Position numbers and translations under genes: made by a program
Source of the DNA: Synechocystis sp.
GTDB taxonomy: Bacteria > Cyanobacteriota > Cyanobacteriia > Cyanobacteriales > Microcystaceae
NCBI GenBank assembly: GCA_041750255.1
Contig: JBGSZT010000054.1
Span: 122-64,121, forward strand
Direction: 5' to 3'
DNA: 64,000 bases
Shown here: in pieces, positions 41,183-64,000 of the stretch
Layout of the letters: the number at the start of each line of letters is the position of its first letter
How positions within the stretch are numbered: position 1 is the first letter of the stretch
Notes under the pieces: model-generated
Told to the model about the DNA's origin: nothing
Seen by the model: the letters and a program-made list of their open reading frames with translations, nothing else
Database searches by the model: none

Positions 41183-42388
41183 TTACGGGTTCAAAATGAT
41201 AGTTTCCAGAGCCACCAAGAGGCGATCAATTTCGTTGATTTCGGTGAAATAATGGCAACAGGCCCGGATGCAGTCCGGATCGGTAATGGTTCGCAGATAA
41301 TAACGCTCCTGCTCTAGTTTTTGTACAATTTCGCCATGGGTCAAGGAACTATCGATGCGAAACGAAACCAATCCTGCTTGGGGCGGCTCTTTGCTCAAAC
41401 AATCAACCCCCGCCAACGTCTGAAGTCCTTGCCACAGGTAGCGACTTAGCTTACAAATTTGCTGATAGCGTGCCTCTGAGTTGCCGGCTTGACGATGGAG
41501 TAATAGGGCGGAACGCAGCCCTGGGTATTGGGGAAATGCCGAGGTTGCCACTTCAAAGCGTCGGCCATCCTCCGCCCATCCCAAGGAGTCTCCGGTGCTT
41601 CCATAGCGCAGACTCCGCCAGCCCACGTAGGTGGGACGCAAGCTATTTAGGCGATCAGGATTGATATAAAGCCCGCCCACCCCCGCTGGGCCACAAAACC
41701 ATTTATGCCCCGTAAAAGCGTAATAATCCACCGACAAAGTATGGAAATCCAAGGCTAAGGACCCCGCCGATTGCGCCCCATCCACCAGTACCTCTACGGG
41801 GTAATCGCCGACAAAATGGCGACATACCGCCATAATCTCCGCCAGGGGCAATACCTGGCCCGTATTCCAGAGTAAATGGCTCAAAATCACCAAGCGGGTC
41901 TTAGGAGTGAGGTGGGCCCGGATTACCTGCGCTGGATCGCCATGATTCAAGGTTTCGCGGATAGGACAGATAGAATGGGTGACCCCCAGGCGATCGCCGA
42001 GGGTCTGGACAATGGCAATCACGCCCGGATGTTCACAATCGGTTAACAAAATATGATCGCCTACCTGCCAATCCAAGCCCCAAAGGACAATATTGCATCC
42101 AGTGGTCACGTTATCTGTCAGTGTGATCGTGCCAGGAGAAACCTGAAATTCGTCAGCTAGGGTTTCTCTCAGTTGAGTCGTTTGCGTCTGAAAAAAGCGA
42201 TTGGCGGTGATGGAAAACGGCCCTTCTGTTTCTAGAAACTGATAGGTATCCAAAATGCTCTGGTAGGCTAGGCGCGGTAAAATTCCCTGGCCGCCATAGT
42301 TGAAGTAAACCTTGCCCAATAATCCTGGAAATTGCTCCCGTAGAGAAGAAAGAGAGTCTTGGGGCTGGGGAGGAGCGAAACTAGTCAT
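41183..42388 (-). CDS. Class V PLP enzyme, cysteine/cystine lyase (C-DES-like)
   Basis: YFNYGGQG, TDCEHP, SHLLWNTG, DGAQS, FTGHKW (PLP Lys), RFEVAT; start moved to ATG 42388. Confidence 0.88.
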   Translation of the reverse strand: MTSFAPPQPQDSLSSLREQFPGLLGKVYFNYGGQGILPRLAYQSILDTYQFLETEGPFSITANRFFQTQTTQLRETLADEFQVSPGTITLTDNVTTGCNIVLWGLDWQVGDHILLTDCEHPGVIAIVQTLGDRLGVTHSICPIRETLNHGDPAQVIRAHLTPKTRLVILSHLLWNTGQVLPLAEIMAVCRHFVGDYPVEVLVDGAQSAGSLALDFHTLSVDYYAFTGHKWFCGPAGVGGLYINPDRLNSLRPTYVGWRSLRYGSTGDSLGWAEDGRRFEVATSAFPQYPGLRSALLLHRQAGNSEARYQQICKLSRYLWQGLQTLAGVDCLSKEPPQAGLVSFRIDSSLTHGEIVQKLEQERYYLRTITDPDCIRACCHYFTEINEIDRLLVALETIILNP

Positions 42389-51672: not shown

Positions 51673-52113
51673 ATGCTGGCTTTTATTTCCCGTGTTTGTT
51701 GTGTTTTTTGGCTGTGGTTATCGTTAACGGCCTGTCAGACGACCTCTGCCGCTCCTCCGTTAGAATTTGCCCCCGATGGTGAGATTGTCAAAACGGCGAT
51801 CGCCTATCAACTCCAGCTCAGCCAAACTCGTCTTAGCCAACAACTCCAGGCAACACCTCCCGGGCTGGCGATCGATGGGATTAAGGTGAATCAGATTGAA
51901 CCCATAGAAGTGGGCGGGCTGGCGGCCTATCACCTGCGGGGACGCTATGACGTGACCCTGACCCTACCCCGACAAACCGTAACCCAAAAACACAATCCCT
52001 TTGATCTGTATCTACAACGTCAAAGTGAAGGCAAAAGTTGGCGACTACTCCAGCGTCAGGTTAAAGCCGACCAAACAGAGCAATGGACTAGCGACCTGAT
52101 TGAGGTTAGCTAG
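51673..52113 (+). CDS. Hypothetical cyanobacterial lipoprotein
   Basis: Lipobox LTAC; YHLRGRY, NPFDLYLQRQ.EGKSWRL. Confidence 0.75.
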   Translation: MLAFISRVCCVFWLWLSLTACQTTSAAPPLEFAPDGEIVKTAIAYQLQLSQTRLSQQLQATPPGLAIDGIKVNQIEPIEVGGLAAYHLRGRYDVTLTLPRQTVTQKHNPFDLYLQRQSEGKSWRLLQRQVKADQTEQWTSDLIEVS

Positions 52114-53551
52114 GTTCTGTTTTTAGAAAAAGACTCGGGGCGCGCAGGCTTTTTTCCAGTTGGGCTTCTGTCAGCACCGGAAAATAAACCTTAAAGGTGG
52201 TGCCTTGGCCCGGTTTACTAAATACTTCGATAAATCCACCATGGTTTTTGATAATGCGGGAGACCGTGGCCAATCCCAGTCCCGTGCCTTTACCCTTGGG
52301 TTTAGTGGTAAAAAACGGATCAAAAATATTGTTGATAACATCGGGGGGAATACCAACTCCGGTGTCGCCCACCGCAATCATAAGATACTCAGAAGCCCAA
52401 GTCTCCGGCTGTTTTTGGATATGCTGATCGCCGAAAACACATTGATCCACCGCAAGGGTGAGCTGACCCCCGTCGGGCATGGCGTCACGGGCATTAATAC
52501 AAAGATTGAGAACTATTTGGTAGATATGGGTGGCGTTAGCACTGATTAAGCCTAGGGGCTGGGGAGTCATATCCAGATTAAAACTAATCGAGGGCGGCAA
52601 GGAATGTTGGATGGTTTTGGCGATGTCGAGAATAAAACTGCGCGATGGCAGGGGGCTGTATCCGGGAGGATTGCCTTCGGTAAAGCGGAGCATATCTTGG
52701 ACGAGATCAACTCCACGTTGGATGCTGTCTTGGATCACTTCCCAGGCCTCTCCATGAGACTCGTCCGAGGGAGAATCTTGCATCAATTGCAGTTGGGCAA
52801 AGCAAAGAATAGGAGTGAAAACATTCTTCAGGTCGTGGGCAATGCCATTGGCCACGAGTCCCAGGCTTTCCACACGCTGAGCCCGCAGGAACTGATACTC
52901 TAGTATCTTGTTTTTGTTGTGGATTTCAGACAGTTCGTTAGTTTTTTCACTAATGCGTAGACCCAAGCATTCACAGGCAACCCGCAATTGAGCCTCTAGG
53001 CGGTGATGGGAGCTGACATCGTGGAGCGACCAGAGTAGCATCGGCGGCAAATGTTCGGTGGCGGGCAACGGAATAACCTGAATCGCGACGGCTAGGGGCG
53101 GTTGGTGGCGGACTTTGAGTAGGAGTTCGCCTTTTGCTTTACTCAGGCTGAGTAGTTCGGTTTGAAAGCGGGTGCGGTCAGATTTGTGAATGAGAAGCAG
53201 TAATGGTTTTCGGTGCAGGTAGAAGGGGGAAGAGAATCCACACATGGCGGCGGCGGTTTGGTTTACCTGTTGGATAACGCCGCTGTTGTCGGTGACTACA
53301 TAGCCACCGGGCGCACAATCAAAGAGGAGTTGGTAGCGTTGGCGTTCTTGCTCTAGGGAGTGCTGAGTTAAGAGCAATTGTTGATTTTGGTTTTGGAGTT
53401 CTTCTTGGGAGGTCTGCAACTCTTCTAAAACATGGTAGAGCTCTTGCACGGCTTTTTCCAAGAGGCTATGCTGAAGAGTGTCGCCCTGGACATATTTTTC
53501 GAGGAGGGAAACTGGCCGGTAAACGGCTTCGATTTGCTCAGAAATGCTCAT
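52106..53551 (-). CDS. PAS-domain sensor histidine kinase without receiver
   Basis: N-terminal coiled coil, PAS (LFDCAPGGYVVTD), H-box IAHDLKN, NLCINARDAM, DTGVGI, FFTTK, GTGLGL. Confidence 0.92.
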   Translation of the reverse strand: MSISEQIEAVYRPVSLLEKYVQGDTLQHSLLEKAVQELYHVLEELQTSQEELQNQNQQLLLTQHSLEQERQRYQLLFDCAPGGYVVTDNSGVIQQVNQTAAAMCGFSSPFYLHRKPLLLLIHKSDRTRFQTELLSLSKAKGELLLKVRHQPPLAVAIQVIPLPATEHLPPMLLWSLHDVSSHHRLEAQLRVACECLGLRISEKTNELSEIHNKNKILEYQFLRAQRVESLGLVANGIAHDLKNVFTPILCFAQLQLMQDSPSDESHGEAWEVIQDSIQRGVDLVQDMLRFTEGNPPGYSPLPSRSFILDIAKTIQHSLPPSISFNLDMTPQPLGLISANATHIYQIVLNLCINARDAMPDGGQLTLAVDQCVFGDQHIQKQPETWASEYLMIAVGDTGVGIPPDVINNIFDPFFTTKPKGKGTGLGLATVSRIIKNHGGFIEVFSKPGQGTTFKVYFPVLTEAQLEKSLRAPSLFLKTEPS

Positions 53552-53674: not shown

Positions 53675-56632
53675 TCATCGATTATCGTCGATCGCCACCA
53701 GGATCAGCGGATTTCCCGACAGGGCGGGGATTTTGCGGACATTAATCATCATCGTTTTGGGGCCTAAATGATCGAATTCATGGTCAATTCTAAAATCATT
53801 AATTTCTGTATCACTACTTAACAAATCTTCTAAGAGTGTATGGAACGCCGGAATGTTCCATTGTCCTTGACTTAGGTCAAAAACAGTACCCTGCTCGCTA
53901 TCGCGGGGAGAAACCTGGAAACGCTCATAAAACTGCTGATTGGCAGTGATGACCTGGAACTCTGAATTCAAGACCAGCAAAGAGTCATGGACGGTTTGAA
54001 TCATGGCTTCGATGTAGTCCCGCGCCTCTTGCAATTGCTGGGTGCGACGCTTGAGCTGATCGATTTCCATCAACAATACCACTGTTCCATCAATGCGGTT
54101 GTCTAGGGTACGGTAGGGACGAATTCTGAGTTCATACCAAAGTCCGTTATTATCTTGAACTTCCTGGAATGTGGGGGATAGGGTCGCCATTACCTCCAAA
54201 ATTTGCTCCTCTAGGTCGCTAATCTGGAGATTATGCTTGATATCACTGAAGGGACGACCAATATCGGCGGGGATCAGATTAAACAGAGAAACCGCCGTGG
54301 GCGTAAAGCGCCGGATGTGGAGATTTTGTTCCAACATCAATATCGGAACATTCATGCTACTGAGTAGGTTCTGAAAGTCGTTACTGACCTTGATGGTGTC
54401 GGCATTGCGGCGAAATAATTCTTCGTTAATCGTGCTCAGTTCTTCGTTGGTGGCTTGGATTTCTTCCTTGGCGGTTTGCAGTTCTTCGTTGGTGCTTTGC
54501 AGTTCTTCATTGCTGGACAAAATTTCTTCATTCGCGGCCCTTAGGTCTTGGTTGGTGGCCTGTTGCTGTCCAATGATGGATTGTAGATGGGCTTTGGTGG
54601 TTTTGAGTTCCTGCTGGAGCCGTAGGATTTCGGCTTGGTCGAGGCGGCTTTTTTCGTGGGGTGCGCCCGTAAAGTTTTGGCCATCAAGGTTGGGCCGTAA
54701 GGATCCAGGAATTTCGGTGAATACAAGAATTTCGGTGAATACAATCAAAAAACAATTGTTTGTGCCGTTGGAGAGCGTAATCGGAACGATGTCGAGGCTG
54801 ATGGAGCGAGATTGGTCTAGGGAATAAACGGTGACACCATCTTTGTGCAGAGGCTCTCCCGATTGTTTGACCTGATAGATGGCGGTGTGAAGCTCAAGGC
54901 GCAATTCTTCTTTGACCATATCCAGTAAATTCAAACTCGCATGCCCCGGCGAGGGTTCCAGGAAGGGCCCCATCTGGCCGCGAAATTGAACAATGTCGAG
55001 CTGGGCATTAATAACAACGCCCTGGGGAGCAAAGCGACTGATGATGATCTTGTCAACGGCGGCGGAGAGCTCTGCTTCTGGGGATTTGGCTTTTCCGTCC
55101 CGATATTCTGGCATTCTGTCCGGTGCCGGGTGGGGACTGCCTAGCTCTATGGGTAGAACTAAGCCTGGTAACTGTTTAGTATAAACTTTGTTTTTGCGGT
55201 CGAGGAGATGAAAAAGATTGACATAATTACCGACGGTTTCCGACGACCCCAGGAGCAGAAAGCCATTGGGTTTGAGGCTGTAGTGGAACATTGACAACAC
55301 CTTTTTCTGGAGGGCCGAGCCGAAATAAATCAGCACATTACGGCAACTGATCAGGTCAATGTGGGAAAATGGTGGGTCATTGAGCAGGTTTTGGCGGGCA
55401 AAAACGCATAATTCGCGGACATTTTTGTTGATTTGATAGCCATTGCCGATCGCATGGAAAAAACGTTGGAGGCGATCGGGCGTAATGCCATCCAACTGAC
55501 TAGCGATATAGACTCCTAGGCGGGCTTTTTTGATAATCGGTTCGCTGACATCGGTGGCAAAAATTTGGATTTGGGGTTGATGGGGCTGATCAGCCAAAAA
55601 TTCGAGCAGAGCTATGGCGATGGAGTAGGCTTCTTCGCCGCTGGAACAACCCGCCACCCAGATCCGTACAGGCACATCGGCTGGGCGATCGCGCAGAATT
55701 GCCGGAAAGACCTGGGCTTTTAAGAGCTCAAAGGCATCGGTATCTCGAAAAAAACTGGTGACGTGGATTAATAATTCTTCGTAGAGGGCTTCAATTTCCT
55801 CGGGCTGTTTTTCCAGATATTGGATATAGTCCTCTAGTTTTTCGAGGCGGTAGAGGGCCATGCGCCGTAGGATGCGCCGTTGTAGAGTCGTGTGCTTGTA
55901 TTGAGCAAAATCTAGCCCAAAGACGGTGCGAAGCAGAGCAAAAATAGTGGAGAGAGCATCCCCATCTTGACCGACGATGGCATTTTCTAGTCGGTCTGTA
56001 GGTTGGGTAACGTAGGGATGCCGACTAATTTTGGCGAGTTCGGCCGCAATTCCCTCCGGTGGCAAAACAAAATCCACCTGCCCAGTGGCGATCGCCGTAT
56101 GGGGCATTCCTGTCACCTGGGCCGACAATTCTGACTGAGCAAAGGTAATCCCCCCAGCGGCCTTGATGGCTTCGAGCCCTTGGGCGCCATCGGTATCCCC
56201 GCCGGACAAGACCACGCCAATGGATTTATTGCCCCACTCCTGGGCCAAGGAATTAAAAAATAGATCTACTGTTTTAACCATCTTGGTGCCCAGACCCCGG
56301 GGTTCCAGGTGCAACGTATTCTGCCGGAGCGTCATCACCGTATCCGACGGAATAACGTAGACCTGATTGGGCGAAACGGTCATCCCCTCCTGGGCTTCCC
56401 ACACCGGCATGGAAGTGGTTCGAGCCAAAATTTCACTCAGCAAACTTTTTTGGCGCGGGTCTAGGTGTTGGACGAGGACAAAGGCCATCCCCGTATCCGT
56501 GGGCAAATGATTGAGCAGTAAAGTAAAAGCCTCTAAGCCTCCGGCCGACGCCCCAATACCCACCATCGGGAATGAATTCGAGGGTTGTAGAGAGTCTGAG
56601 GGAGGGGATTTAGAAGACTTCTTGGCAGACAT
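53675..56632 (-). CDS. CheB-CheR fusion with coiled coil and two PAS domains
   Basis: CheB triad motifs GASAGG, VQH, LSG..TDG; CheR motifs WVAGCSSGEEAYS, ATD, ISCRNVLIYF; EELQSTNEEL coil; PAS-PAS C-terminus. Confidence 0.93.
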   Translation of the reverse strand: MSAKKSSKSPPSDSLQPSNSFPMVGIGASAGGLEAFTLLLNHLPTDTGMAFVLVQHLDPRQKSLLSEILARTTSMPVWEAQEGMTVSPNQVYVIPSDTVMTLRQNTLHLEPRGLGTKMVKTVDLFFNSLAQEWGNKSIGVVLSGGDTDGAQGLEAIKAAGGITFAQSELSAQVTGMPHTAIATGQVDFVLPPEGIAAELAKISRHPYVTQPTDRLENAIVGQDGDALSTIFALLRTVFGLDFAQYKHTTLQRRILRRMALYRLEKLEDYIQYLEKQPEEIEALYEELLIHVTSFFRDTDAFELLKAQVFPAILRDRPADVPVRIWVAGCSSGEEAYSIAIALLEFLADQPHQPQIQIFATDVSEPIIKKARLGVYIASQLDGITPDRLQRFFHAIGNGYQINKNVRELCVFARQNLLNDPPFSHIDLISCRNVLIYFGSALQKKVLSMFHYSLKPNGFLLLGSSETVGNYVNLFHLLDRKNKVYTKQLPGLVLPIELGSPHPAPDRMPEYRDGKAKSPEAELSAAVDKIIISRFAPQGVVINAQLDIVQFRGQMGPFLEPSPGHASLNLLDMVKEELRLELHTAIYQVKQSGEPLHKDGVTVYSLDQSRSISLDIVPITLSNGTNNCFLIVFTEILVFTEIPGSLRPNLDGQNFTGAPHEKSRLDQAEILRLQQELKTTKAHLQSIIGQQQATNQDLRAANEEILSSNEELQSTNEELQTAKEEIQATNEELSTINEELFRRNADTIKVSNDFQNLLSSMNVPILMLEQNLHIRRFTPTAVSLFNLIPADIGRPFSDIKHNLQISDLEEQILEVMATLSPTFQEVQDNNGLWYELRIRPYRTLDNRIDGTVVLLMEIDQLKRRTQQLQEARDYIEAMIQTVHDSLLVLNSEFQVITANQQFYERFQVSPRDSEQGTVFDLSQGQWNIPAFHTLLEDLLSSDTEINDFRIDHEFDHLGPKTMMINVRKIPALSGNPLILVAIDDNR
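54709..54744. repeat. Exact 18-bp tandem duplication inside the CheB-CheR gene
   Basis: GAATTTCGGTGAATACAA twice; protein VFTEIL-VFTEIP. Confidence 0.9.
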
Positions 56633-56987
56633 TATGTATTGGGAACGGTAGAGAACTGATTTTTCAGTTTAGATGATTTTTGTTGGCTTCACAGAAAAGT
56701 CACGATATTTATATATAAAGGATATAAAGGTTAATGGACAGTTAAAGTGAGCCTGATTTTGGCTAAACCAACTGTAAATAAATTTGGCGTTAATAACATT
56801 TTCCCGCGTTATAAGGGGTTGCTACATCTTTCGTCTCCCCCGAAAAAGAAGTTTGATCCTCTTCTGATGTCAAGAATGATTAAATATTCAGGCAGTGATT
56901 TAGCTGTTTTTTAGTTACAAAAACCCTTGTTATTTCCCCATCGCCTGGGTTTCATCGAGTCTACATTCTCACACCAAACACTGAACC

Positions 56988-57617
56988 ATGGCCTATACAA
57001 TCGTCAATTTGACCTTGAAGTTATTGGAGCGAGAAATTGAAGATTTTCTTTGGGATTATCCTCCCAATCATCCCTACAGAATGGTTTGCTCTGTCCCCTA
57101 TCTTCATAATAAATTAGTGGCAACGGTTTTGAGTCGAGTTCCCAATCGCTATTGTGTTGTCGAGGAGACTAATTTTTCTGTTGGTGAAGTTGGTTTTTAC
57201 CAATCTTTGTTGGAAGAACGTATCTTGATTGAAGATAGGATTCGTGCGGCGATTCCAGAGCTAGTACAAAAAGAGGGACTTATGGCGGCGAAATTGGGCG
57301 AAATCGAGGTGGATTCTCCCCACGCCTGGTGGCTCAAGATTCATACTGCCACTCCCTGCGTTACCTATCATTTTGGCCCCTTTGCCAGCCACGAAGAGGC
57401 GAAGTTGAATTATTGGGGGTATTTAGAGGATTTGCTCCGGGAGCAAGCGGAGGGTATTTCCTTTGAGGTGAGGCAAGGTCAACCCACGGTTTTAACCCAG
57501 GAGGGGAATCAGGATTGGTCGGAGACCGTGGCTTCTTTTTCTGCCTCCCCGACGTCTCGCTTCACTCCTGCCAGTCCAGTAATGAGCGAATCTGCTGGAG
57601 TAGGTCTGAGGCCTTGA
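56988..57617 (+). CDS. CdgR/ComFB-like N-terminal domain fused to DUF1816
   Basis: N-term NLTL..LEREIE...YP..HPY.....P.L..KLVA.VLSRVPNRY......LEER..IE; C-term AWWLKI.T..P..TYHFGPF.S..EA.....GYLEDL..E.A.GI. Confidence 0.7.
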   Translation: MAYTIVNLTLKLLEREIEDFLWDYPPNHPYRMVCSVPYLHNKLVATVLSRVPNRYCVVEETNFSVGEVGFYQSLLEERILIEDRIRAAIPELVQKEGLMAAKLGEIEVDSPHAWWLKIHTATPCVTYHFGPFASHEEAKLNYWGYLEDLLREQAEGISFEVRQGQPTVLTQEGNQDWSETVASFSASPTSRFTPASPVMSESAGVGLRP

Positions 57618-57936
57618 AGGGTTTGAGGATCATACCGGCGATCGCCTGATTTTTGCAGTAGTCTTGCATATTGGCCTTGGCGGTGAGAAAAATAACGGGA
57701 ATGGGGCATGTTTCAGGATTGGTTTTGAGAGCAGTCAGGGTACTTAGCCCGTCCATACCCGGCATCATCACATCTAGCAGGATGGCATCGGGATGAAGTG
57801 CCTGGGCCAGTTCTGCTCCTTGACAACCAGAATTGGCCGTCCAAACTTCCCATTTGGTCAGGGCCTTGAGGGCAATTTGTACAATTTTACAAATGCCGGG
57901 GTCGTCGTCAATAATCAGTACTCGTTTGGTGGTCAT
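57562..57936 (-). CDS. Single-domain response regulator (CheY/RcaF-like)
   Basis: VLIIDDD, ILLDVMMPGMDG, FLTAK, KPF; overlaps the kinase stop. Confidence 0.93.
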   Translation of the reverse strand: MTTKRVLIIDDDPGICKIVQIALKALTKWEVWTANSGCQGAELAQALHPDAILLDVMMPGMDGLSTLTALKTNPETCPIPVIFLTAKANMQDYCKNQAIAGMILKPFKASDLLQQIRSLLDWQE

Positions 57937-60433
57937 AGCTGGGGTTTAGGGGTAGGGTGAAATAAAAATTCGTGCCTTGGCCAAGGTTACTTTCGGCCCA
58001 AATACGGCCGCCATGGCGTTCGACCACGTTGCGACAGAGGGCTAAGCCCAGACCAATACCTTCTTTGGCGCGGATGTCAGAGCTATCGGCTTGGTGGAAA
58101 CGCTCAAAAATAGTATCCATGCATTGAGGGGTGATGCCCCTGCCTTGGTCCGCAATCTTGAAGAGAACAACATTGCGTTTTGGCCCGAGGGGATGCTCGT
58201 CGATGGCAAAACAAACTGCTATTTCAACCGTGCAGTTGGGTTCTGAAAACTTGATGGCATTGCTGAGCAGGTTGATCAAAACTTGCCCCAGGCGATCAGG
58301 GTCGGCCCAAATGTAATCGACTACGATTGAGGTCTGGAGATGAATGTGTGCCTGGCTGGCCATGTCGGCTAAGGCGGCGATCACCGTTTGGACGATAGTT
58401 TGCGGGTCGCATTTTTGTTTTTTGATGACAATCTGGCCGGCTTCGAGGCGTTCTAGGTCGAGGATGTCGTTGACGAGGCGAACCAGACGGTCGATCCCTT
58501 GCATCGCAATGCCGGTCACCATTCGACTGTCCTGGGGACTAAGGTCGAGATTGACGTCACTAAGTAGACTCAGGGAGGATTGAAGATAGGTTAAAGGAGT
58601 ACGGAGTTCGTGGCTGACGATGGACATAAACTCAGATTTGAGCCGCTCTAGGTGGTAGCGTTCGGTGATATCTCGACCAATACTAATGACGCCAATGGCC
58701 TCACCGTTGGTATTATTGAGGACGGTATTGTGCCAGCTAATCATGTGTTCTTGCCGGGATGGGGTGACCAGGACTTCTTCGATGTAGTCGGGGAATTGGG
58801 TCTGAAGGGCTTGAGTAAAGGATTGGTAAATTCTGGCCTGGCGATCAGGGGAAATAAAGGTTTCAAACCAGGATTGACCGATAATATCGTCGCCTTTGAC
58901 CTGGGCTACTTTTTCAAAAAAAGGATTAACGTAGCGGATCTTGCCCTGCTGGTCTACTTCTACCACTAACATTTGAATTTGATGGAGCAGAGAGCGCCAG
59001 CGCCGGTTAAATTCCTTGAGGGCGGATTCATTTTCCTTGCGTTCTGTAATATCTTGGAAGACGCCGACCACACCAATGATTTTGCCAGACCCATCGCGTA
59101 GAGGTGCTTTATGGGTTTCTATGTGCCGCTTTACGCCATTGGGAAGGGTGATTGTTTCTTGGATCGCTAGTTTTGGTTCTCCCGATGTCATCACCTCTTC
59201 GTCGTCCCGACGATAGGCGATCGCCTCAGACTTTGACGAGACAAGATCAAATTCACTGATTCCGACCCCGAGATCAAAATCAGATTTACCGACAATCTCC
59301 GCCGGTGAGGATAGTCCCATGGCCATCGATAATCGTTGATTACACCCGAGGAATCTAGACTCCCGGTCTTTCCAGAACAATGGCAATGGCATGGTATCCA
59401 GCAATGTCTGAATAAACTGCTCAGAATTGGATAAAGCCTGTTCTGTTTCTTGATGCTCAGTAATATCCGTCACCATCTGTAATCGCCCCAAATAGTGATG
59501 CTGGGAGTCGAATATCGATGTAACCGAGACGAGCGCCCAGAGGGTCGAGCCATCCCGATGATAAAAGCGGCAATTTTGCCGATGAATACATCCTTCCTTT
59601 TCTTGACAGGTCGAGTCTAATTTCAAATCAGCTAGGCTATCGGGGTTGATAAAATCCTGGAAGGGTTTTCCCTCCATTTCTGCCACCGAGTAGCCCAACA
59701 TCTTGGCCATGGCCAGATTGACCATAACCGTATTGCCCTGGGGGTCGGTTTGCCAAATCCCCTCACTGGCGGTATCGATGACATTTTTATAGTTTTTTTT
59801 GGTGAGGCTGAGTTTTTTTTGTAGGGCCTGGTGCTGGCTCAATCCTTCTAACAGGTAATGATAGGAGGTATCTAGGTCTGAGCGTTGTTTTTTGATTTGG
59901 TTTTCTAGGTCTAGATTAGCCTGATATAACTTTTGTTCAATCTCTTTGCGCTCAGTAATATCGAGGCCAATTCCCTTCATACCGATGGGGTTTCCCTGGG
60001 CATCGTAAATAAGTTCTGCCCGCACACTATGGAAGCGAACTCGACCATCGGGTAAGCAAGTGCGGTGTTCACTGGCAAAGGGTTGACCATTTAATGCTTG
60101 GTCGATTTCGCTTAGGACTCTATCCTTGTCGTCGGGATGGAGGAGACTGACAAAAAGATTGAAATCAACGGGGTCGGTGGCAGAAAGACCAGAGAGCCGT
60201 CGTAATTCCTCTGACCACCAGACTTCATTGGTTATTTTGTTCCAATACCAATGGCCAACCTTGGCCAGGCGTTGGATGTCGGCGAGGAGAATTTCGTAGG
60301 ACTCTAGGCTATCGAGATCGGGTCGAGGATGGTTTAAAGATGGTGGCCGTCGGAGTTTCAATTCAGCATTTTCCCGTCGTAATGCCTTGAGCTCCTCAAT
60401 CAGTTCTGTTTTTTTTTTGCGGCGATCATTCAT
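57908..60433 (-). CDS. Cytoplasmic multi-PAS (four PAS/PAC) histidine kinase
   Basis: PAS/PAC ends DITERK, DITEHQ, DITERK, DITERY; H-box VSHELRTPLT; NLLSNAIKFS, DQGRGI, GLGLA; no TM segment or GAF seen. Confidence 0.93.
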   Translation of the reverse strand: MNDRRKKKTELIEELKALRRENAELKLRRPPSLNHPRPDLDSLESYEILLADIQRLAKVGHWYWNKITNEVWWSEELRRLSGLSATDPVDFNLFVSLLHPDDKDRVLSEIDQALNGQPFASEHRTCLPDGRVRFHSVRAELIYDAQGNPIGMKGIGLDITERKEIEQKLYQANLDLENQIKKQRSDLDTSYHYLLEGLSQHQALQKKLSLTKKNYKNVIDTASEGIWQTDPQGNTVMVNLAMAKMLGYSVAEMEGKPFQDFINPDSLADLKLDSTCQEKEGCIHRQNCRFYHRDGSTLWALVSVTSIFDSQHHYLGRLQMVTDITEHQETEQALSNSEQFIQTLLDTMPLPLFWKDRESRFLGCNQRLSMAMGLSSPAEIVGKSDFDLGVGISEFDLVSSKSEAIAYRRDDEEVMTSGEPKLAIQETITLPNGVKRHIETHKAPLRDGSGKIIGVVGVFQDITERKENESALKEFNRRWRSLLHQIQMLVVEVDQQGKIRYVNPFFEKVAQVKGDDIIGQSWFETFISPDRQARIYQSFTQALQTQFPDYIEEVLVTPSRQEHMISWHNTVLNNTNGEAIGVISIGRDITERYHLERLKSEFMSIVSHELRTPLTYLQSSLSLLSDVNLDLSPQDSRMVTGIAMQGIDRLVRLVNDILDLERLEAGQIVIKKQKCDPQTIVQTVIAALADMASQAHIHLQTSIVVDYIWADPDRLGQVLINLLSNAIKFSEPNCTVEIAVCFAIDEHPLGPKRNVVLFKIADQGRGITPQCMDTIFERFHQADSSDIRAKEGIGLGLALCRNVVERHGGRIWAESNLGQGTNFYFTLPLNPSYDHQTSTDY

Positions 60434-60469
60434 AGACCAGTTTCCAATTTATCAATGAGTAAAGATTCC

Positions 60470-62974
60470 TTAAACAGCCGGTAGGACTTGATTGCGCCCG
60501 TGGCTTTTGGCTCGATAGAGGGCGGTATCAGCGGCTTGATACAAGCTTTGCAAATCATCACCATCCTCTGGAAACTGGGCAATGCCGGCGCTAAGACTAA
60601 TCTGGAGTGGATTTTCGTCTTTGCCCATGATTTGATGTTGACTAAAACGATGGCTTAATTCGGTCAGGCGTTGTAGCCCGCTTAATTTGTTGATGCCGTA
60701 CATAGCCACCAAAAATTCATCTCCGCCCCAGCGTCCCACCACATCTTCGCGCCGAAAGAGTTGGTTGAGCAGTTGCCCCAGGTAGCGCAAAACTTGATCG
60801 CCAACGTCGTGGCCATGCTGGTCATTAATGCGCTTAAAAAAGTCTAGGTCTAAAATGCTAAAGCTGAGGGGTTGTTTTTGTCGTTTGGCCAGGTAAAGCA
60901 GTTGGGTCAAGTCTTGCAGAAGTTTACGCCGTAGACTCACCCCCGTCAATTCGTCGATATCGGCTAAGGTCCACAGCTTGCGTTGTTGCAGCCGGGCCTG
61001 AATATGATTCAAAAGCTCGTCTCCATTGATCGGTTTTTTGAGAAAATCATCGGCGCCGGCACTGATGCCGTCTTGAATGGTTTTGAGGTCGGTGTGGACC
61101 GAGAGGAAGATAACCGGCAAACGATTCCAGTGGGGGTCACTGCGAATAATTTTGCAGAGGTCGATGCCATTGAGGGGAGAAACCAAAACATCATCATGGC
61201 CAGAGCCATTACCATTGGTGGTGTAAGGAGCGAGTTTCAGGCGATCGCCGAGTTCAATATCCAGAATCAATAATTCCGGGGTCGATTGCTCTAGCACCTC
61301 CCAAAAATGGTTGGGCTGATCGAGTAGGGTCAATTGATAGCCGTGGGGTTTTAGCAAGGTTTCGATGCAATGCAATAAATCCGGGTCATCATCCACCACC
61401 ATCAAGCGAGCATTTTTGAGATTATTGGATTGCAACATCTGGGTGGCGGTGGTCAAAATCTGAAAGGAGCTGAGGGGTTTGGAGAGGAAACATTGACACC
61501 CCAGCCGTGATGCTTCGATGCGGGAGGTCATGGTATTTTCCGTTGTCAAGATCATCACCGGAATTTCGGGGTGTTGAGCCTGCAAGTGCCCCAAAAACTT
61601 CAATCCCGTTTTGCCCAGATTGGGGAAATTCAAATCCAGGATAATCAGTTGAGGGAGTTGTTTTTTGAGATAGGCCTTGGCTTGTGCGAGCTGGGTAGCC
61701 ATTTCTAGCTCAATGCCCCAGGTCACGGCCTCCGCTACCACGGTTTCAGCGAATAAAAAATCATTATCTACAATCAGTAGGCCCCGATAGAGGGTAGATT
61801 CCCCCAGGGATATGGGCGGAGACACCACCGTCAAGGACGGCAAGCCATCCACGCTAAAGCATTTTTCTAACTCTCGGCTCAGCTCCTGGAGTTGGTCGAT
61901 ATCCACCGGATCTAGTTGCTCTTTACTGCGAAAAATCGTCTGGATTTGCAAAGAAATCTGGGACGCATCTTCTAGCCCAAAGGAGCCGAGGGAACCGATC
62001 AGGGTATGGATTTCGGCTTCGGCCTCCTGGCGTTGGTCGGCACTCAGACTGCCCTCGTTCCGCAACCGCTGAATCGCCATTTTCACCACCAAAAAACGAT
62101 GGTAGTAAGCGTGTCTGCACTCCAACCAGGCTTGGCAGAGTTCGGGGGAAAAGGAAATATCGTGACTCAAGTCTTGGAGTTCGGGGTCGTTGCCCTCGGG
62201 GCTAGATACAACAAGGCTTCTATAGTCTTTGAGGCGATAGCCTAATTTATAGACGGTTTCTAAAATATTCTCACAGCCCGCTTCTTTGAGTTTTTTTCTC
62301 AGCCCTTTGATGTGGGAACGCACCGCTCCTTCGCTGGGATATTGCTCCGAAGTCCAGAGACGATCAAGCAACTGGCTCGAGCTAAAAATTCGGTCAGGAT
62401 TTCGCAAAAACAATTCCAGTATTTCGTATTCCTTTGAGGCCAAGGGAACCATGTGCTCGGCGTAGGTGACCTCACAGGTATTGGGGTTCAGGCGCAATTG
62501 TTCATAGGTCAAGATTGGCGATCGACTGCCTTTACTACGGCGCAGTAGGGCGCGGATACGAGCCAATAATTCTTCAATGACAAAGGGCTTAATCACATAG
62601 TCATCGGCGCCAGCATCCAAGCCAATTATCTTATTATTTACCTCGTCTAACGCTGTCATCAAAAGTACCGGAGTGTCTCGGTTCAGATTAAGAACAGTAG
62701 AATTATTACTCCGGAGTTGCTTACAAAAATTGATGCCATCTAGCACCGGCAACATCAAGTCAAGCAAAATAATGTCGTAGGGATAGGATTCAGCCAAATT
62801 CCAACCCATTCGGCCGTCGGAGGCCAGCTCAACCTGATAGTTTTTTTTCACTAATATGTCCTGGAGAAGTTTAGCGAGTTCTTGATCGTCTTCAACACAA
62901 AGAATTTTCACAGGCGTAAGAAATAAGGGTTTAAAGTTTGGCGAATTGTGGTAAATATCATCGAATTTGATCAA
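60470..62974 (-). CDS. RcaC-like multidomain regulator: REC-OmpR wHTH-Hpt-REC-REC-GGDEF
   Basis: REC1 LLDLMLP; wHTH ending ETVYKLGYRL; Hpt HTLIGSLGSFG; REC2 ILDLNFP; REC3 ILDIE; GGDEF RREDVVGRWGGDEF. Confidence 0.92.
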   Translation of the reverse strand: MIKFDDIYHNSPNFKPLFLTPVKILCVEDDQELAKLLQDILVKKNYQVELASDGRMGWNLAESYPYDIILLDLMLPVLDGINFCKQLRSNNSTVLNLNRDTPVLLMTALDEVNNKIIGLDAGADDYVIKPFVIEELLARIRALLRRSKGSRSPILTYEQLRLNPNTCEVTYAEHMVPLASKEYEILELFLRNPDRIFSSSQLLDRLWTSEQYPSEGAVRSHIKGLRKKLKEAGCENILETVYKLGYRLKDYRSLVVSSPEGNDPELQDLSHDISFSPELCQAWLECRHAYYHRFLVVKMAIQRLRNEGSLSADQRQEAEAEIHTLIGSLGSFGLEDASQISLQIQTIFRSKEQLDPVDIDQLQELSRELEKCFSVDGLPSLTVVSPPISLGESTLYRGLLIVDNDFLFAETVVAEAVTWGIELEMATQLAQAKAYLKKQLPQLIILDLNFPNLGKTGLKFLGHLQAQHPEIPVMILTTENTMTSRIEASRLGCQCFLSKPLSSFQILTTATQMLQSNNLKNARLMVVDDDPDLLHCIETLLKPHGYQLTLLDQPNHFWEVLEQSTPELLILDIELGDRLKLAPYTTNGNGSGHDDVLVSPLNGIDLCKIIRSDPHWNRLPVIFLSVHTDLKTIQDGISAGADDFLKKPINGDELLNHIQARLQQRKLWTLADIDELTGVSLRRKLLQDLTQLLYLAKRQKQPLSFSILDLDFFKRINDQHGHDVGDQVLRYLGQLLNQLFRREDVVGRWGGDEFLVAMYGINKLSGLQRLTELSHRFSQHQIMGKDENPLQISLSAGIAQFPEDGDDLQSLYQAADTALYRAKSHGRNQVLPAV

Positions 62975-63257
62975 AATTTGCAGGATATTTACAGATTGTG
63001 TAGTTTGTGTTCATGGAAAGCATACCGACCATTGACTGTATTCATCTGTATTCATATTTACTTTTTCATATTTACTTTATTTTGTTATTTTGTATTTTGC
63101 TAAAAATGCTAAAAACGGAAGATTAGAGGGCGGGTTGCGCATTGTTCTGAGCCGGGGTAATAAAACAATGCAATACCAGTACTCTAGGCAGAGTCGTATA
63201 AATTGACTGACTCGTGAAGAAAAACTAGCTACGGAAAAACTTTGTGAACTAGCTTAG

Positions 63258-63293
63258 GAAAGTTTTGTGAAAGTTTTGTGAAAGTTTTGTGAA
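63258..63293. repeat. Three tandem 11-bp repeats GAAAGTTTTGT in the divergent promoter region
   Basis: Exact units at 63258, 63269 and 63280 plus a partial GAA; further TTTGTGA at 63241 and 63307. Confidence 0.9.
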
Positions 63294-63816
63294 CCAAGTC
63301 AATAATTTTGTGAGAATTCCGTGAATAATCTTGGCTGATTTTTATTAAAAATAGGACGACGTGTTTTCTGTCCACTGAAGCCAGCGATCAGACCAGAATA
63401 GTCCATGATTGTTGGGAGGAATTAAGCCCAGCTTGCGAAACGCATGTTCTTGTAACAATGTTCGTATTTACAAGTGATTTTCCAACCTGGATTTTCCTTT
63501 TCTAGGTTTTTAACCCTAATATCTTCACCGGTAACAGTCTCGATTTTAAAAGTTTTAGATGATTTGGTTCTAATCATTTTCAGTCAAAAGATCCCGTATC
63601 TAATTTCAGTAAAACTACGGTTGTCATAAATCACAAAACAATGTGGAGCTGATTTTTCGACTATTTTGAAACAAAATTGAGATCAATTAATCTAGTTCTA
63701 CTAGCTATTTTTCCTGATATATGCAATCGTCATTTTCTGGAAATTCTACTAGCCAGATTTTTGCTGGCAAAATTTATTTCTGCTGTTAACCTTGCTAGGT
63801 TTCTATCACTTAAATT

Positions 63817-64000
63817 ATGGAATTCTCACCCGCACCATTTTCCAATGAATCCTCTTCTACGCCTGAATTGGCTTTTATTAGCTCGACTATTAGTGACTAT
63901 AGTAGTCTTGCTCAGGTTGTTTCATCCCAAGCTCAGCTATTTTTTCTGGAGCCGGGACAGGCAGAAATTGAACAAATTAGTGAAGTCTTGTCCCGATATC
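63817..64000 (+). CDS. 5' end of a DUF4347-domain (large surface/secreted) protein, cut by the window end
   Basis: Manual translation MEFSPAPFSNESSSTPELAFISSTISDYSSLAQVVSSQAQLFFLEPGQAEIEQISEVLSRY..., matching the start of the DUF4347 pattern (LVFIDS.V.DY..L...V......L....DGIEQI...L). Confidence 0.65.
   Translation, partial: MEFSPAPFSNESSSTPELAFISSTISDYSSLAQVVSSQAQLFFLEPGQAEIEQISEVLSRY

Follow-up and report, generated by a model that had tools for sequence, protein, structure and literature searches.

The Rca phosphorelay of cyanobacteria begins with RcaE, a kinase carrying a bilin-binding GAF domain, passes through the lone receiver RcaF, and ends at RcaC, which binds DNA elements called L boxes (PMC13492139, PMC8256508). 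RcaC combines three CheY-like domains with a winged helix (PMC4390838), and genetic support for the four-step order of the relay is attributed in PMC13492139 to Kehoe and Grossman (1997). Another cyanobacterial phosphorelay, that of CdgK and CdgS in Anabaena PCC 7120, activates a cyclase composed of a receiver (REC) and a GGDEF domain (PMC9927289). Proteins that contain GGDEF, REC, and Trans_reg_C domains have been listed in Leptolyngbya boryana as Dgc4, Dgc6, Dgc8, and Dgc9, three of them also with an Hpt domain (bioRxiv 10.1101/2022.01.10.475764, Fig. S1 legend), and the inventory of cyclic di-GMP (c-di-GMP) proteins of Synechocystis PCC 6803 includes no such protein (PMC10124867). Our search of the literature found no experimental study of any RcaC-like protein with a GGDEF tail. 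Here we describe such a protein and its gene neighbours in a stretch of 64,000 nucleotides from Synechocystis sp. (assembly GCA_041750255.1, contig JBGSZT010000054.1, positions 122 to 64,121), hereafter called the window. Three adjacent minus-strand genes encode a large response regulator (REG), a histidine kinase (HK), and a lone receiver (sREC) (Table 1). We consider it probable that these genes constitute an Rca-type multi-step phosphorelay operon with both transcriptional and c-di-GMP output, and that they represent a widespread but uncharacterised cyanobacterial family.

The relationship to the Rca system is evident when the trio is compared with two reference clusters, L072 and L067, in each of which the gene for a kinase of ~700 amino acids (aa) is followed by genes for a 124-128-aa receiver and then a 620-647-aa regulator. 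Both are identified as true rcaEFC clusters because the GAF domain of the L072 kinase is ~85% identical to the crystallised RcaE GAF domain (PDB 7CKV and 8K9O; E 4e-78 and 5e-92), and the L067 and L072 kinases share 66% identity over their full length. The Rca proteins from these clusters were searched against the whole genome that contains the window, and each found its best match in the trio. RcaF matched sREC with 51% identity (1.6e-31, compared to 7e-19 for the next protein), with all other receivers in the genome reaching at most 36%. RcaC matched REG (1e-64 compared to 1e-47), with further segments aligning to its second and third receivers, and RcaE matched HK over the PAS region and catalytic core (7e-65 compared to 3e-35). 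The first-pass annotation had described the locus as Rca-like, and these results establish that the likeness is one of homology rather than mere analogy.

Conservation between REG and true RcaC proteins is uneven along the chain, with identities of 55% for the first receiver (REC1), 47% for the winged helix-turn-helix (wHTH), 24% for the histidine phosphotransfer domain (HPt), 23% for the second receiver (REC2), and 50% for the third (REC3). The middle receiver of both true RcaC proteins is a pseudo-receiver, in which Arg replaces the phospho-acceptor Asp, Gly or Ala replaces Thr, and Pro or Gln replaces Lys. This degenerate domain had been omitted from the earlier description of RcaC as a REC-wHTH-Hpt-REC protein. 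In REG, as in most of the wider family, REC2 is canonical. REG otherwise carries the features of an RcaC-type regulator, namely a receiver joined to a winged helix, an internal HPt domain with its His residue, and two further receivers, and its gene is clustered with those for a kinase and a lone receiver. Unlike RcaC-type proteins, which end after the last receiver at ~620-650 aa, REG continues beyond REC3 into a GGDEF domain of 170 aa.

The open reading frame (ORF) list confirms the tight linkage of the three genes noted previously, with a gap of 36 bp between REG and HK (60434-60469) and an overlap of 29 bp between the start of sREC and the stop of HK (57908-57936). All three ORFs are intact and retain every catalytic residue. 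The true start of REG is probably the GTG codon at 62911 rather than the TTG codon at 62974, because translation from the former places the REC1 Asp at residue 51, as in nearly all relatives, and yields the sequence MKILCVEDD, which is the consensus N terminus of the family. The predicted protein is then 813 aa long, and all REG residue numbers are counted from this GTG.

Pfam recognizes in REG four stretches of Response_reg (217 bits), one Trans_reg_C domain, one Hpt domain (cutoff 24.6 bits), and one GGDEF domain. An AlphaFold2 model of the protein, built on 40 homologues, has a mean pLDDT of 80.9 and contains six folded domains. Disorder is limited to the linkers and to a clade-specific insertion of ~22 aa in the beta3-alpha3 loop of REC3, where the pLDDT falls below 50 at residues 558-576. 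The HPt domain is modelled as helices spanning residues 256-286, 291-310, 314-329, and 335-352, with H302 located on the second of these. Foldseek comparisons reveal that the N-terminal part of REG resembles regulators of the OmpR/PhoB family, and that the fold of its C-terminal half (REC-REC-GGDEF) corresponds to those of full-length PleD (E 3.5e-32) and DgcR (TMt 0.64), although REG scores below the NCBIfam equivalog cut-offs for both proteins (288 versus 474 for PleD and 188 versus 500 for DgcR).

The residues expected for phosphotransfer are strongly conserved. The D51, T86, and K108 positions of REC1 are invariant across 44 family members, as is the His equivalent to H302 (44 of 44, with two true RcaC proteins among them), and the Asp, Thr or Ser, and Lys positions of the receivers, together with the HPt His, are near-invariant among these 44 relatives and 40 database homologues. 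Likewise, the GGDEF domain has the GG(D/E)EF active site (A-site; G729-G-D-E-F733), the metal- and GTP-binding residues, and the RxxD inhibitory site (I-site) of GGDEF cyclases, the last as R720-R-E-D723 five residues upstream of the A-site. Alignment with PleD indicates that the ligands of metal, guanine, and phosphate (D688, N696, D705, K802, and R806) are conserved. Thus each motif named in the first-pass annotation, including the Asp residues of all three receivers, the HTLIGSLG His, the GGDEF signature, and the RRED I-site, has been located. The dual output it proposed for a single polypeptide is supported, in that both output domains are present with their catalytic and I-site residues intact.

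REG belongs to an extensive family, in that its full architecture recurs, at 42-57% identity, in more than 120 protein clusters, whose sources include Snowella, Anabaena, Planktothrix, Nostoc, Phormidium, Fischerella, Chroococcidiopsis, and Gloeocapsa. Full-length matches are present in ~22 of 300 genomes sampled across the cyanobacterial phylum. In addition, many REC-wHTH-HPt-REC-REC proteins of ~620-650 aa that lack the tail match REG residues 20-575 or 20-667 with 38-46% identity. We fetched 43 regulator loci, comprising 23 with a GGDEF tail and 20 without. The regulator adjoins a large multi-sensor kinase and a lone receiver in 17 of the tailed and 15 of the tail-less loci, and because of this synteny the triad arrangement is not a product of chance. 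The three genes occur together across at least 10 cyanobacterial families, and the receiver gene overlaps the stop codon of the kinase gene both in the window and in orthologous loci such as L029, L031, and L032.

In a tree of the shared REC1-to-REC3 region, tailed and tail-less proteins are interleaved, and the branches with good support require no fewer than six gains, losses, or swaps of the tail. REG itself is placed in a clade with 100% support that also contains proteins from a Snowella-like organism, Planktothrix, genome G047, and Nostocaceae. The suggestion that the relay had been rewired at this locus as a special event is therefore not supported, because the GGDEF tail is conserved in a large family. 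The locus is better described as a member of a conserved GGDEF-tailed family whose kinase, in this genome, has lost its bilin and receiver head.

Some relatives depart from this architecture. In eight loci (L037, L038, L041, L042, L054, L057, L081, and L082), an RcaC-like N terminus is fused to a histidine-kinase core in one ORF of 922-1755 aa, in some cases with further receivers, and most of these ORFs are followed by an RcaF-like lone receiver. The REG orthologue of genome G104 (L014, 8156-10518) changes frame near residue 730, immediately ahead of the GGDEF motif, and is thereby split, which reflects either a pseudogene or an assembly error.

Pfam assigns to HK four PAS stretches, a HisKA domain, and a HATPase_c domain, in agreement with the initial description of a PAS-only kinase, and detects in it neither a GAF domain nor the REC-GAF module of its orthologues. 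The catalytic core is complete, with H608 and the N, G1, F, and G2 boxes. Orthologous kinases measure 1040-1525 aa as longest ORFs (the called proteins are 1477 aa in the Snowella-like L029 and 1400 aa in Anabaena cylindrica L031) and have, on the N-terminal side of the PAS array, one receiver and a pair of GAF domains. The REC-GAF portion of the Snowella-like kinase can be aligned over its whole length with PDB 6OAP (E 7e-57), which is the structure of PPHK, a phosphorylation-responsive photosensitive kinase from Leptolyngbya sp. JSC-1 (PMC11480761). The orthologue GAF domain is of the cyanobacteriochrome type, retains the canonical bilin Cys, and has DXCF-like motifs. An N-terminal REC domain and a Cys-bearing GAF domain are found in orthologues of the Snowella-like, Planktothrix, and Nostocaceae loci, and the orthologues that carry them include those of L009, L029, L031, L011, L012, L010, and L014.

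The N terminus of HK preserves a trace of this arrangement. Its leader helix, MNDRRKKKTELIEELKALRRENAELK, corresponds to the pattern M-E/N-D..K..QLIAEL..LR.E of its relatives, after which the protein jumps in frame over ~620 alignment columns to the coiled coil that precedes the first PAS domain. Because the sister lineage and most outgroups possess the head, the parsimonious interpretation is that the PAS-only form of HK arose by in-frame loss of a REC-GAF-GAF head. In three Nostocaceae operons (L010, L012, and L031), a Cph1/Rcp1-like phytochrome kinase and a receiver of 148-152 aa lie between the regulator and the REC-GAF-GAF-PAS kinase, and these operons thus include two photoreceptor-type kinases.

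What HK perceives would depend on whatever its four remaining PAS domains can sense, or else the kinase may be constitutive or controlled by a partner. The first-pass annotation proposed a non-bilin signal, which agrees with the absence of a GAF domain from HK but does not extend to the orthologues, whose kinases carry a REC domain and a Cys-bearing GAF domain. It also proposed that the kinase had been adaptively re-targeted to redox, oxygen, or a metabolite through a PAS domain that binds heme or flavin. Some observations fit this idea. The four PAS domains have been retained and share 36-48% identity with their counterparts in the Snowella-like orthologue, suggesting that they are under constraint, and PAS-only kinases also serve the orthologous operons of G047 and Fischerella PCC 9605. 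However, no PAS domain of HK specifically matches a cofactor-binding PAS domain among its PDB hits, the best of which are the non-heme PAS-A domain of FixL and non-LOV PAS domains, and no evidence for heme or flavin emerged. Moreover, these PAS domains are also present in orthologues that have the bilin GAF head, and so were not recruited as a replacement sensor. On balance, we regard adaptive re-targeting as unlikely. A flavin-binding (LOV) reading of the second PAS domain was considered and rejected. Its QNCRFYHRDG segment resembles the NCRFLQ sequence of LOV domains, but it occupies the position of the usual PAS G-beta motif (R..hkDG), and LOV-type hits reach only E ~1e-4. We take the NCRF string to lie on the G-beta strand rather than at the flavin-Cys position of LOV domains.

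By analogy with the Rca system, HK would autophosphorylate on H608 and pass the phosphoryl group to D55 of sREC, from which it would move to H302 of the REG HPt domain and then to the receivers of REG itself. The lone receiver has the necessary residues (D55, T85, and K105) and is 42-59% identical to the syntenic lone receivers of relatives. In most orthologues, the PPHK-like head with its REC and bilin-GAF domains would allow the kinase to sense light, phosphorylation, or both. Phosphorylation of REC1 at D51 is predicted to let the winged helix bind repeats of the form TTCACAA-N4-TTCACAA, including an array located 337-382 bp upstream of the REG start, and would thereby create autoregulation. 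Phosphorylation of REC3 at D551 would activate the GGDEF cyclase through the connecting helix, as occurs in PleD, DgcR, and WspR, and the RRED I-site would provide product inhibition. A single relay could in this manner set both transcription and the level of c-di-GMP.

A different wiring can be drawn from the same proteins. HK might phosphorylate a REG receiver directly, with sREC acting to drain phosphate, to compete, or to provide an output of its own by binding another protein, and with the HPt domain shuttling phosphoryl groups among the REG receivers. Such a scheme would fit the canonical state of all three REG receivers, when the middle receiver of true RcaC is dead. It would also accommodate the report that RcaF of Nostoc flagelliforme binds the sigma factor SigB1 and Hrr1 (PMC13079394), which points to a partner-binding function in addition to phosphotransfer, and the frequent presence of extra receiver genes next to the operon in relatives. 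Nevertheless, the invariance of the HPt His and the tight coupling of the sREC gene to the kinase gene fit a His-Asp-His-Asp relay, and the Rca genetics cited above favours the four-step order. We therefore judge direct phosphorylation of REG by its kinase to be rather improbable, and retain the four-step relay as the working model.

A further possibility concerns the GGDEF domain, which might serve mainly as a sensor that binds c-di-GMP at its RRED I-site, such that c-di-GMP made elsewhere would modulate the transcription factor. The I-site is conserved throughout the clade, and several distant family members keep the domain despite having dead A-sites. However, the GG(D/E)EF signature and the residues for metal, guanine, and phosphate are intact in REG and in its whole clade, which would not be expected if catalysis were dispensable. 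A role confined mainly to c-di-GMP sensing thus seems very doubtful, and we favour an active, phosphorylation-gated cyclase.

The DNA-binding function proposed for REG is given a candidate target by the sequence upstream of its gene. On the minus strand, TTCACAAAACT is present in 3.3 copies at 63258-63293 (tandem-repeat finder: period 11, 100% match), and its units supply the first three of the TTCACAA half-sites in Table 1 (those at -382, -371, and -360). Half-sites with one mismatch are located at -403 and -307, and the array is roughly in helical phase. A layout of 7-nucleotide direct repeats spaced by 4 nucleotides is what OmpR/PhoB winged helices bind. The direct-repeat box TTCACAA-N4-TTCACAA is new here, and the exact sequence is present nowhere else in the 3.59-Mb genome. 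Four additional short tandem repeats, perfect or near-perfect (periods 8, 9, 10, and 14), lie in the very AT-rich 5' region of REG at window positions 63036-63115, and a consensus scan of positions 56500-63900 for promoters and terminators yielded nothing above shuffled expectation.

The association of the box with the relay extends to relatives. Allowing at most one mismatch, there are 25 matches in 1.70 Mb of fetched relay loci, compared to one match for a control with reversed half-sites. The matches are located at regulator operons and are on the strand of the regulator in all loci but one, the exception being Fischerella L032, whose two boxes point towards a divergent gene for an additional receiver. 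A first set of boxes is found 220-410 bp upstream of a small conserved ORF situated before the regulator gene, and a second comes shortly after the lone-receiver gene and precedes a gene for an additional receiver or kinase. In four genomes of 4.7-6.5 Mb that represent three families (G020 with two boxes, G246, G107, and G047), the exact box is found genome-wide only at the orthologous locus. Among genomes with an orthologue, the closest is the Snowella-like G218, and it contains five exact boxes away from its relay locus. Two of these are upstream of a polysaccharide chain-length gene of the Wzz/P-loop (Wzc-like) type (L136 4122 and 4192) and one is upstream of a NarL-type regulator gene (L137 4160), making these two genes possible members of a regulon.

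The small ORF between the box and the regulator encodes 130-140 aa and is found in L029 (5414-5836), L031 (7556-7948), L010, L012, and L014. It has no Pfam match, the Snowella-like and Anabaena versions are 43% identical, and no homologue was found in the genome of the window. Boxes with one mismatch elsewhere in the genome of the window (C39, C53, C68, and window position 42032) occur in unconvincing contexts, and we make no regulon claim for them. For example, one is 24 bp before a run of ORFs for small secreted proteins, and another is 511 bp before a 373-aa ORF that we take to encode a glycosyltransferase.

Several considerations weigh against the interpretation of the locus as an autoregulated relay operon with a cyclase output. 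The order of phosphotransfer is borrowed from the Rca system, and three canonical receivers in REG would allow other routes. Co-transcription of the three genes is suggested by the 36-bp gap and the 29-bp overlap at their junctions. The box is likely the site of REG, and the operon is likely autoregulated, but what connects them is association. The loss of the sensor head of HK may signify reduced or altered function. Some distant members of the family have degenerate GGDEF motifs (YGQQF, GNGEF, and SGAEF), and cyclase activity is thus not universal. Finally, the relay locus was not found in five genomes of the same genus and is therefore accessory. Although this absence, the lack of a DNA counterpart in those five genomes for the block extending from ~52.4 kb to the 64-kb window end, the missing pre-regulator ORF, and the failure to find any close relative of the HK sensor half among 5.8 billion proteins (where the next best match is a 1472-aa REC-GAF-PAS protein with 30% identity) could signify a decaying remnant whose regulation was disabled by the head deletion and whose genes are heading to loss, we consider this highly improbable because the three ORFs keep all of their catalytic residues, the kinase deletion is in frame and spares the leader helix, and the upstream box array is expanded (3.3 perfect copies) rather than eroded.

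Besides the relay, the block from ~52.4 kb to the window end contains several other genes. The gene at the 3' side of sREC is convergent with it, with an overlap of 56 bp between the 3' ends, and encodes a protein that matches, over residues 1-104, ORFs assigned to ComFB by Pfam and that has DUF1816 as its second domain. This ComFB-DUF1816 architecture is known from Sll1170 (PMC12448109). Although outside the operon, this gene may be functionally associated with it. In at least six lineages (L019, L035/L036/L051/L097, L050, L073, and L078), ORFs for ComFB or DUF1816 are located within a few kilobases of an RcaC-type relay. This association is suggestive, but such neighbours occur with or without a GGDEF domain on the regulator, and so are not specific to cyclase-bearing regulators.

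Farther along, a CheB-CheR-PAS gene is followed 123 bp downstream by a PAS-HisKA-HATPase gene. Rather than lacking an output, this pair corresponds to a split version of fusions that join CheBR, PAS, and kinase domains, such as a 1410-aa protein of L079 with 54% identity, and CheBR homologues are also present beside the RcaC-type loci L052, L054, L055, L057, and L079. Genes to the left of the 52.4-kb boundary are conserved at 65-81% identity in genomes of the same genus, though they are scattered there. On the other side, a divergent gene encoding a DUF4347 domain (182 bits) shares with REG a 900-bp AT-rich intergenic region that includes the box array. DUF4347 is typical of the N termini of very large secreted or surface proteins. 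This gene was rejected as a conserved target of the relay, since it is not syntenic in relatives.

Table 1. Positions of the relay genes, their domains, and neighbouring genes in the window (position 1 is its first nucleotide).
Feature	Position	Strand	Details
Regulator gene (REG)	60470..62974	-	REC1-wHTH-HPt-REC2-REC3-GGDEF; longest ORF 834 aa from TTG 62974
REC1	62552..62905	-	Pfam Response_reg 24-141; D51 phospho-acceptor, T86, K108
OmpR/PhoB-type winged helix (Trans_reg_C)	62231..62449	-	Pfam 72 bits; recognition helix GAVRSHIKGLRKKL
HPt four-helix bundle	61856..62146	-	H302 in HTLIGSLG; Pfam Hpt 33 bits
REC2, canonical receiver	61412..61786	-	D426, T456, K478
REC3	60962..61411	-	D551, S604, K626; long helix runs into GGDEF
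GGDEF diguanylate-cyclase domain	60488..60964	-	A-site GGDEF 729-733; I-site RRED 720-723; Pfam 142 bits
Histidine kinase gene (HK)	57908..60433	-	841 aa; leader helix, four PAS, HisKA, HATPase
HK array of four PAS domains	~58655-60262	-	Pfam
HK HisKA (H608) and HATPase	57944-58639	-	Pfam; motif positions
Lone receiver gene (sREC), RcaF-like	57562..57936	-	124 aa; single Response_reg
Direct half-site array, predicted REG box	63212..63314	-	TTCACAA starts at -382, -371, -360, and -337 from GTG
ComFB-like (residues 1 to ~105) and DUF1816 (112-170) gene	56988..57617	+	209 aa; Pfam DUF1816 77 bits
CheB-CheR-PAS gene	53675-56632	-	985 aa
PAS-HisKA-HATPase gene	52106-53551	-	481 aa; 123 bp downstream of the CheB-CheR-PAS gene
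Divergent DUF4347 gene	from 63817 past the window end (L001 4845-5501)	+	DUF4347 182 bits

Taken as a whole, these observations lead us to propose, more tentatively than the existence of the relay itself, a conserved module in which an autoregulating OmpR-type factor and a phosphorylation-gated c-di-GMP synthase reside in one polypeptide that is fed, through an RcaF-like shuttle, by a kinase sensing light and phosphorylation. The locus described here would be a 'blind' version of this module, and the recurrent ComFB/DUF1816 proteins would be candidate receptors for cyclic dinucleotides (c-di-NMP). If so, a single relay couples gene expression to the level of a second messenger and to its receptor. 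RcaC, a classic subject in cyanobacterial signalling, is a single branch within a far broader family of relay regulators whose C-terminal output is interchangeable, being absent, a GGDEF domain, or a fused kinase. Members with the GGDEF tail would bring two-component phosphorelay, transcription, and c-di-GMP together in one protein. The findings also provide a context for ComFB/DUF1816 proteins, which were recently proposed to be c-di-NMP receptors. The defined phospho-sites (H608, D55, H302, D51, D426, and D551) offer handles on the system, the predicted box, which is close to unique within a genome, serves to mark the operon in several families, and the natural pair of kinases with and without a bilin head could reveal what the head contributes.

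Among described proteins, Dgc4, Dgc6, Dgc8, and Dgc9 of L. boryana have the same kinds of domains as REG, although the figure legend that lists them gives no domain order and reports no functional study. Like CdgK-CdgS, the relay proposed here, whose order is assumed by analogy, would be a cyanobacterial His-Asp-His-Asp relay that ends on a receiver-GGDEF cyclase. However, the HPt domain and intermediate receivers of the Anabaena system are part of the hybrid kinase CdgK rather than of the regulator, CdgS has no DNA-binding domain, and the two systems are not orthologous. The receiver-GGDEF half of REG, with its conserved A-site, I-site, and catalytic residues, resembles the receiver-controlled diguanylate cyclases, which include PleD of Caulobacter, DgcR of Leptospira, and WspR of Pseudomonas. 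REG differs from these proteins in that a DNA-binding response regulator and an HPt domain are joined to this half, and in that both receivers preceding the GGDEF domain keep their Asp. The orthologues of HK share with PPHK an N-terminal REC-GAF module bearing the canonical Cys, whereas HK lacks the module entirely.

The closest relationship is to RcaE-RcaF-RcaC, known from the type-3 chromatic acclimation of Fremyella diplosiphon and others, in which all three proteins are homologous to those of the window and are likewise encoded by clustered genes. REG and RcaC have in common the order REC-wHTH-HPt-REC-REC, sREC resembles RcaF in its length of ~124 aa, and HK and RcaE share the last PAS domain and the HisKA/HATPase core. 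OmpR-type direct repeats with an 11-bp period are located upstream in both systems. The half-site here is TTCACAA, whereas that of the L box is TTGCACA, and no link of the relay in the window to phycobilisome genes was seen. HK has no green/red bilin GAF domain of the RcaE type, and its orthologues carry a different, PPHK-like GAF domain. The genes run in the order regulator-kinase-receiver rather than the Rca order of kinase-receiver-regulator. Finally, REG has a canonical middle receiver in place of the degenerate one of RcaC, and adds to the RcaC architecture a C-terminal GGDEF domain.

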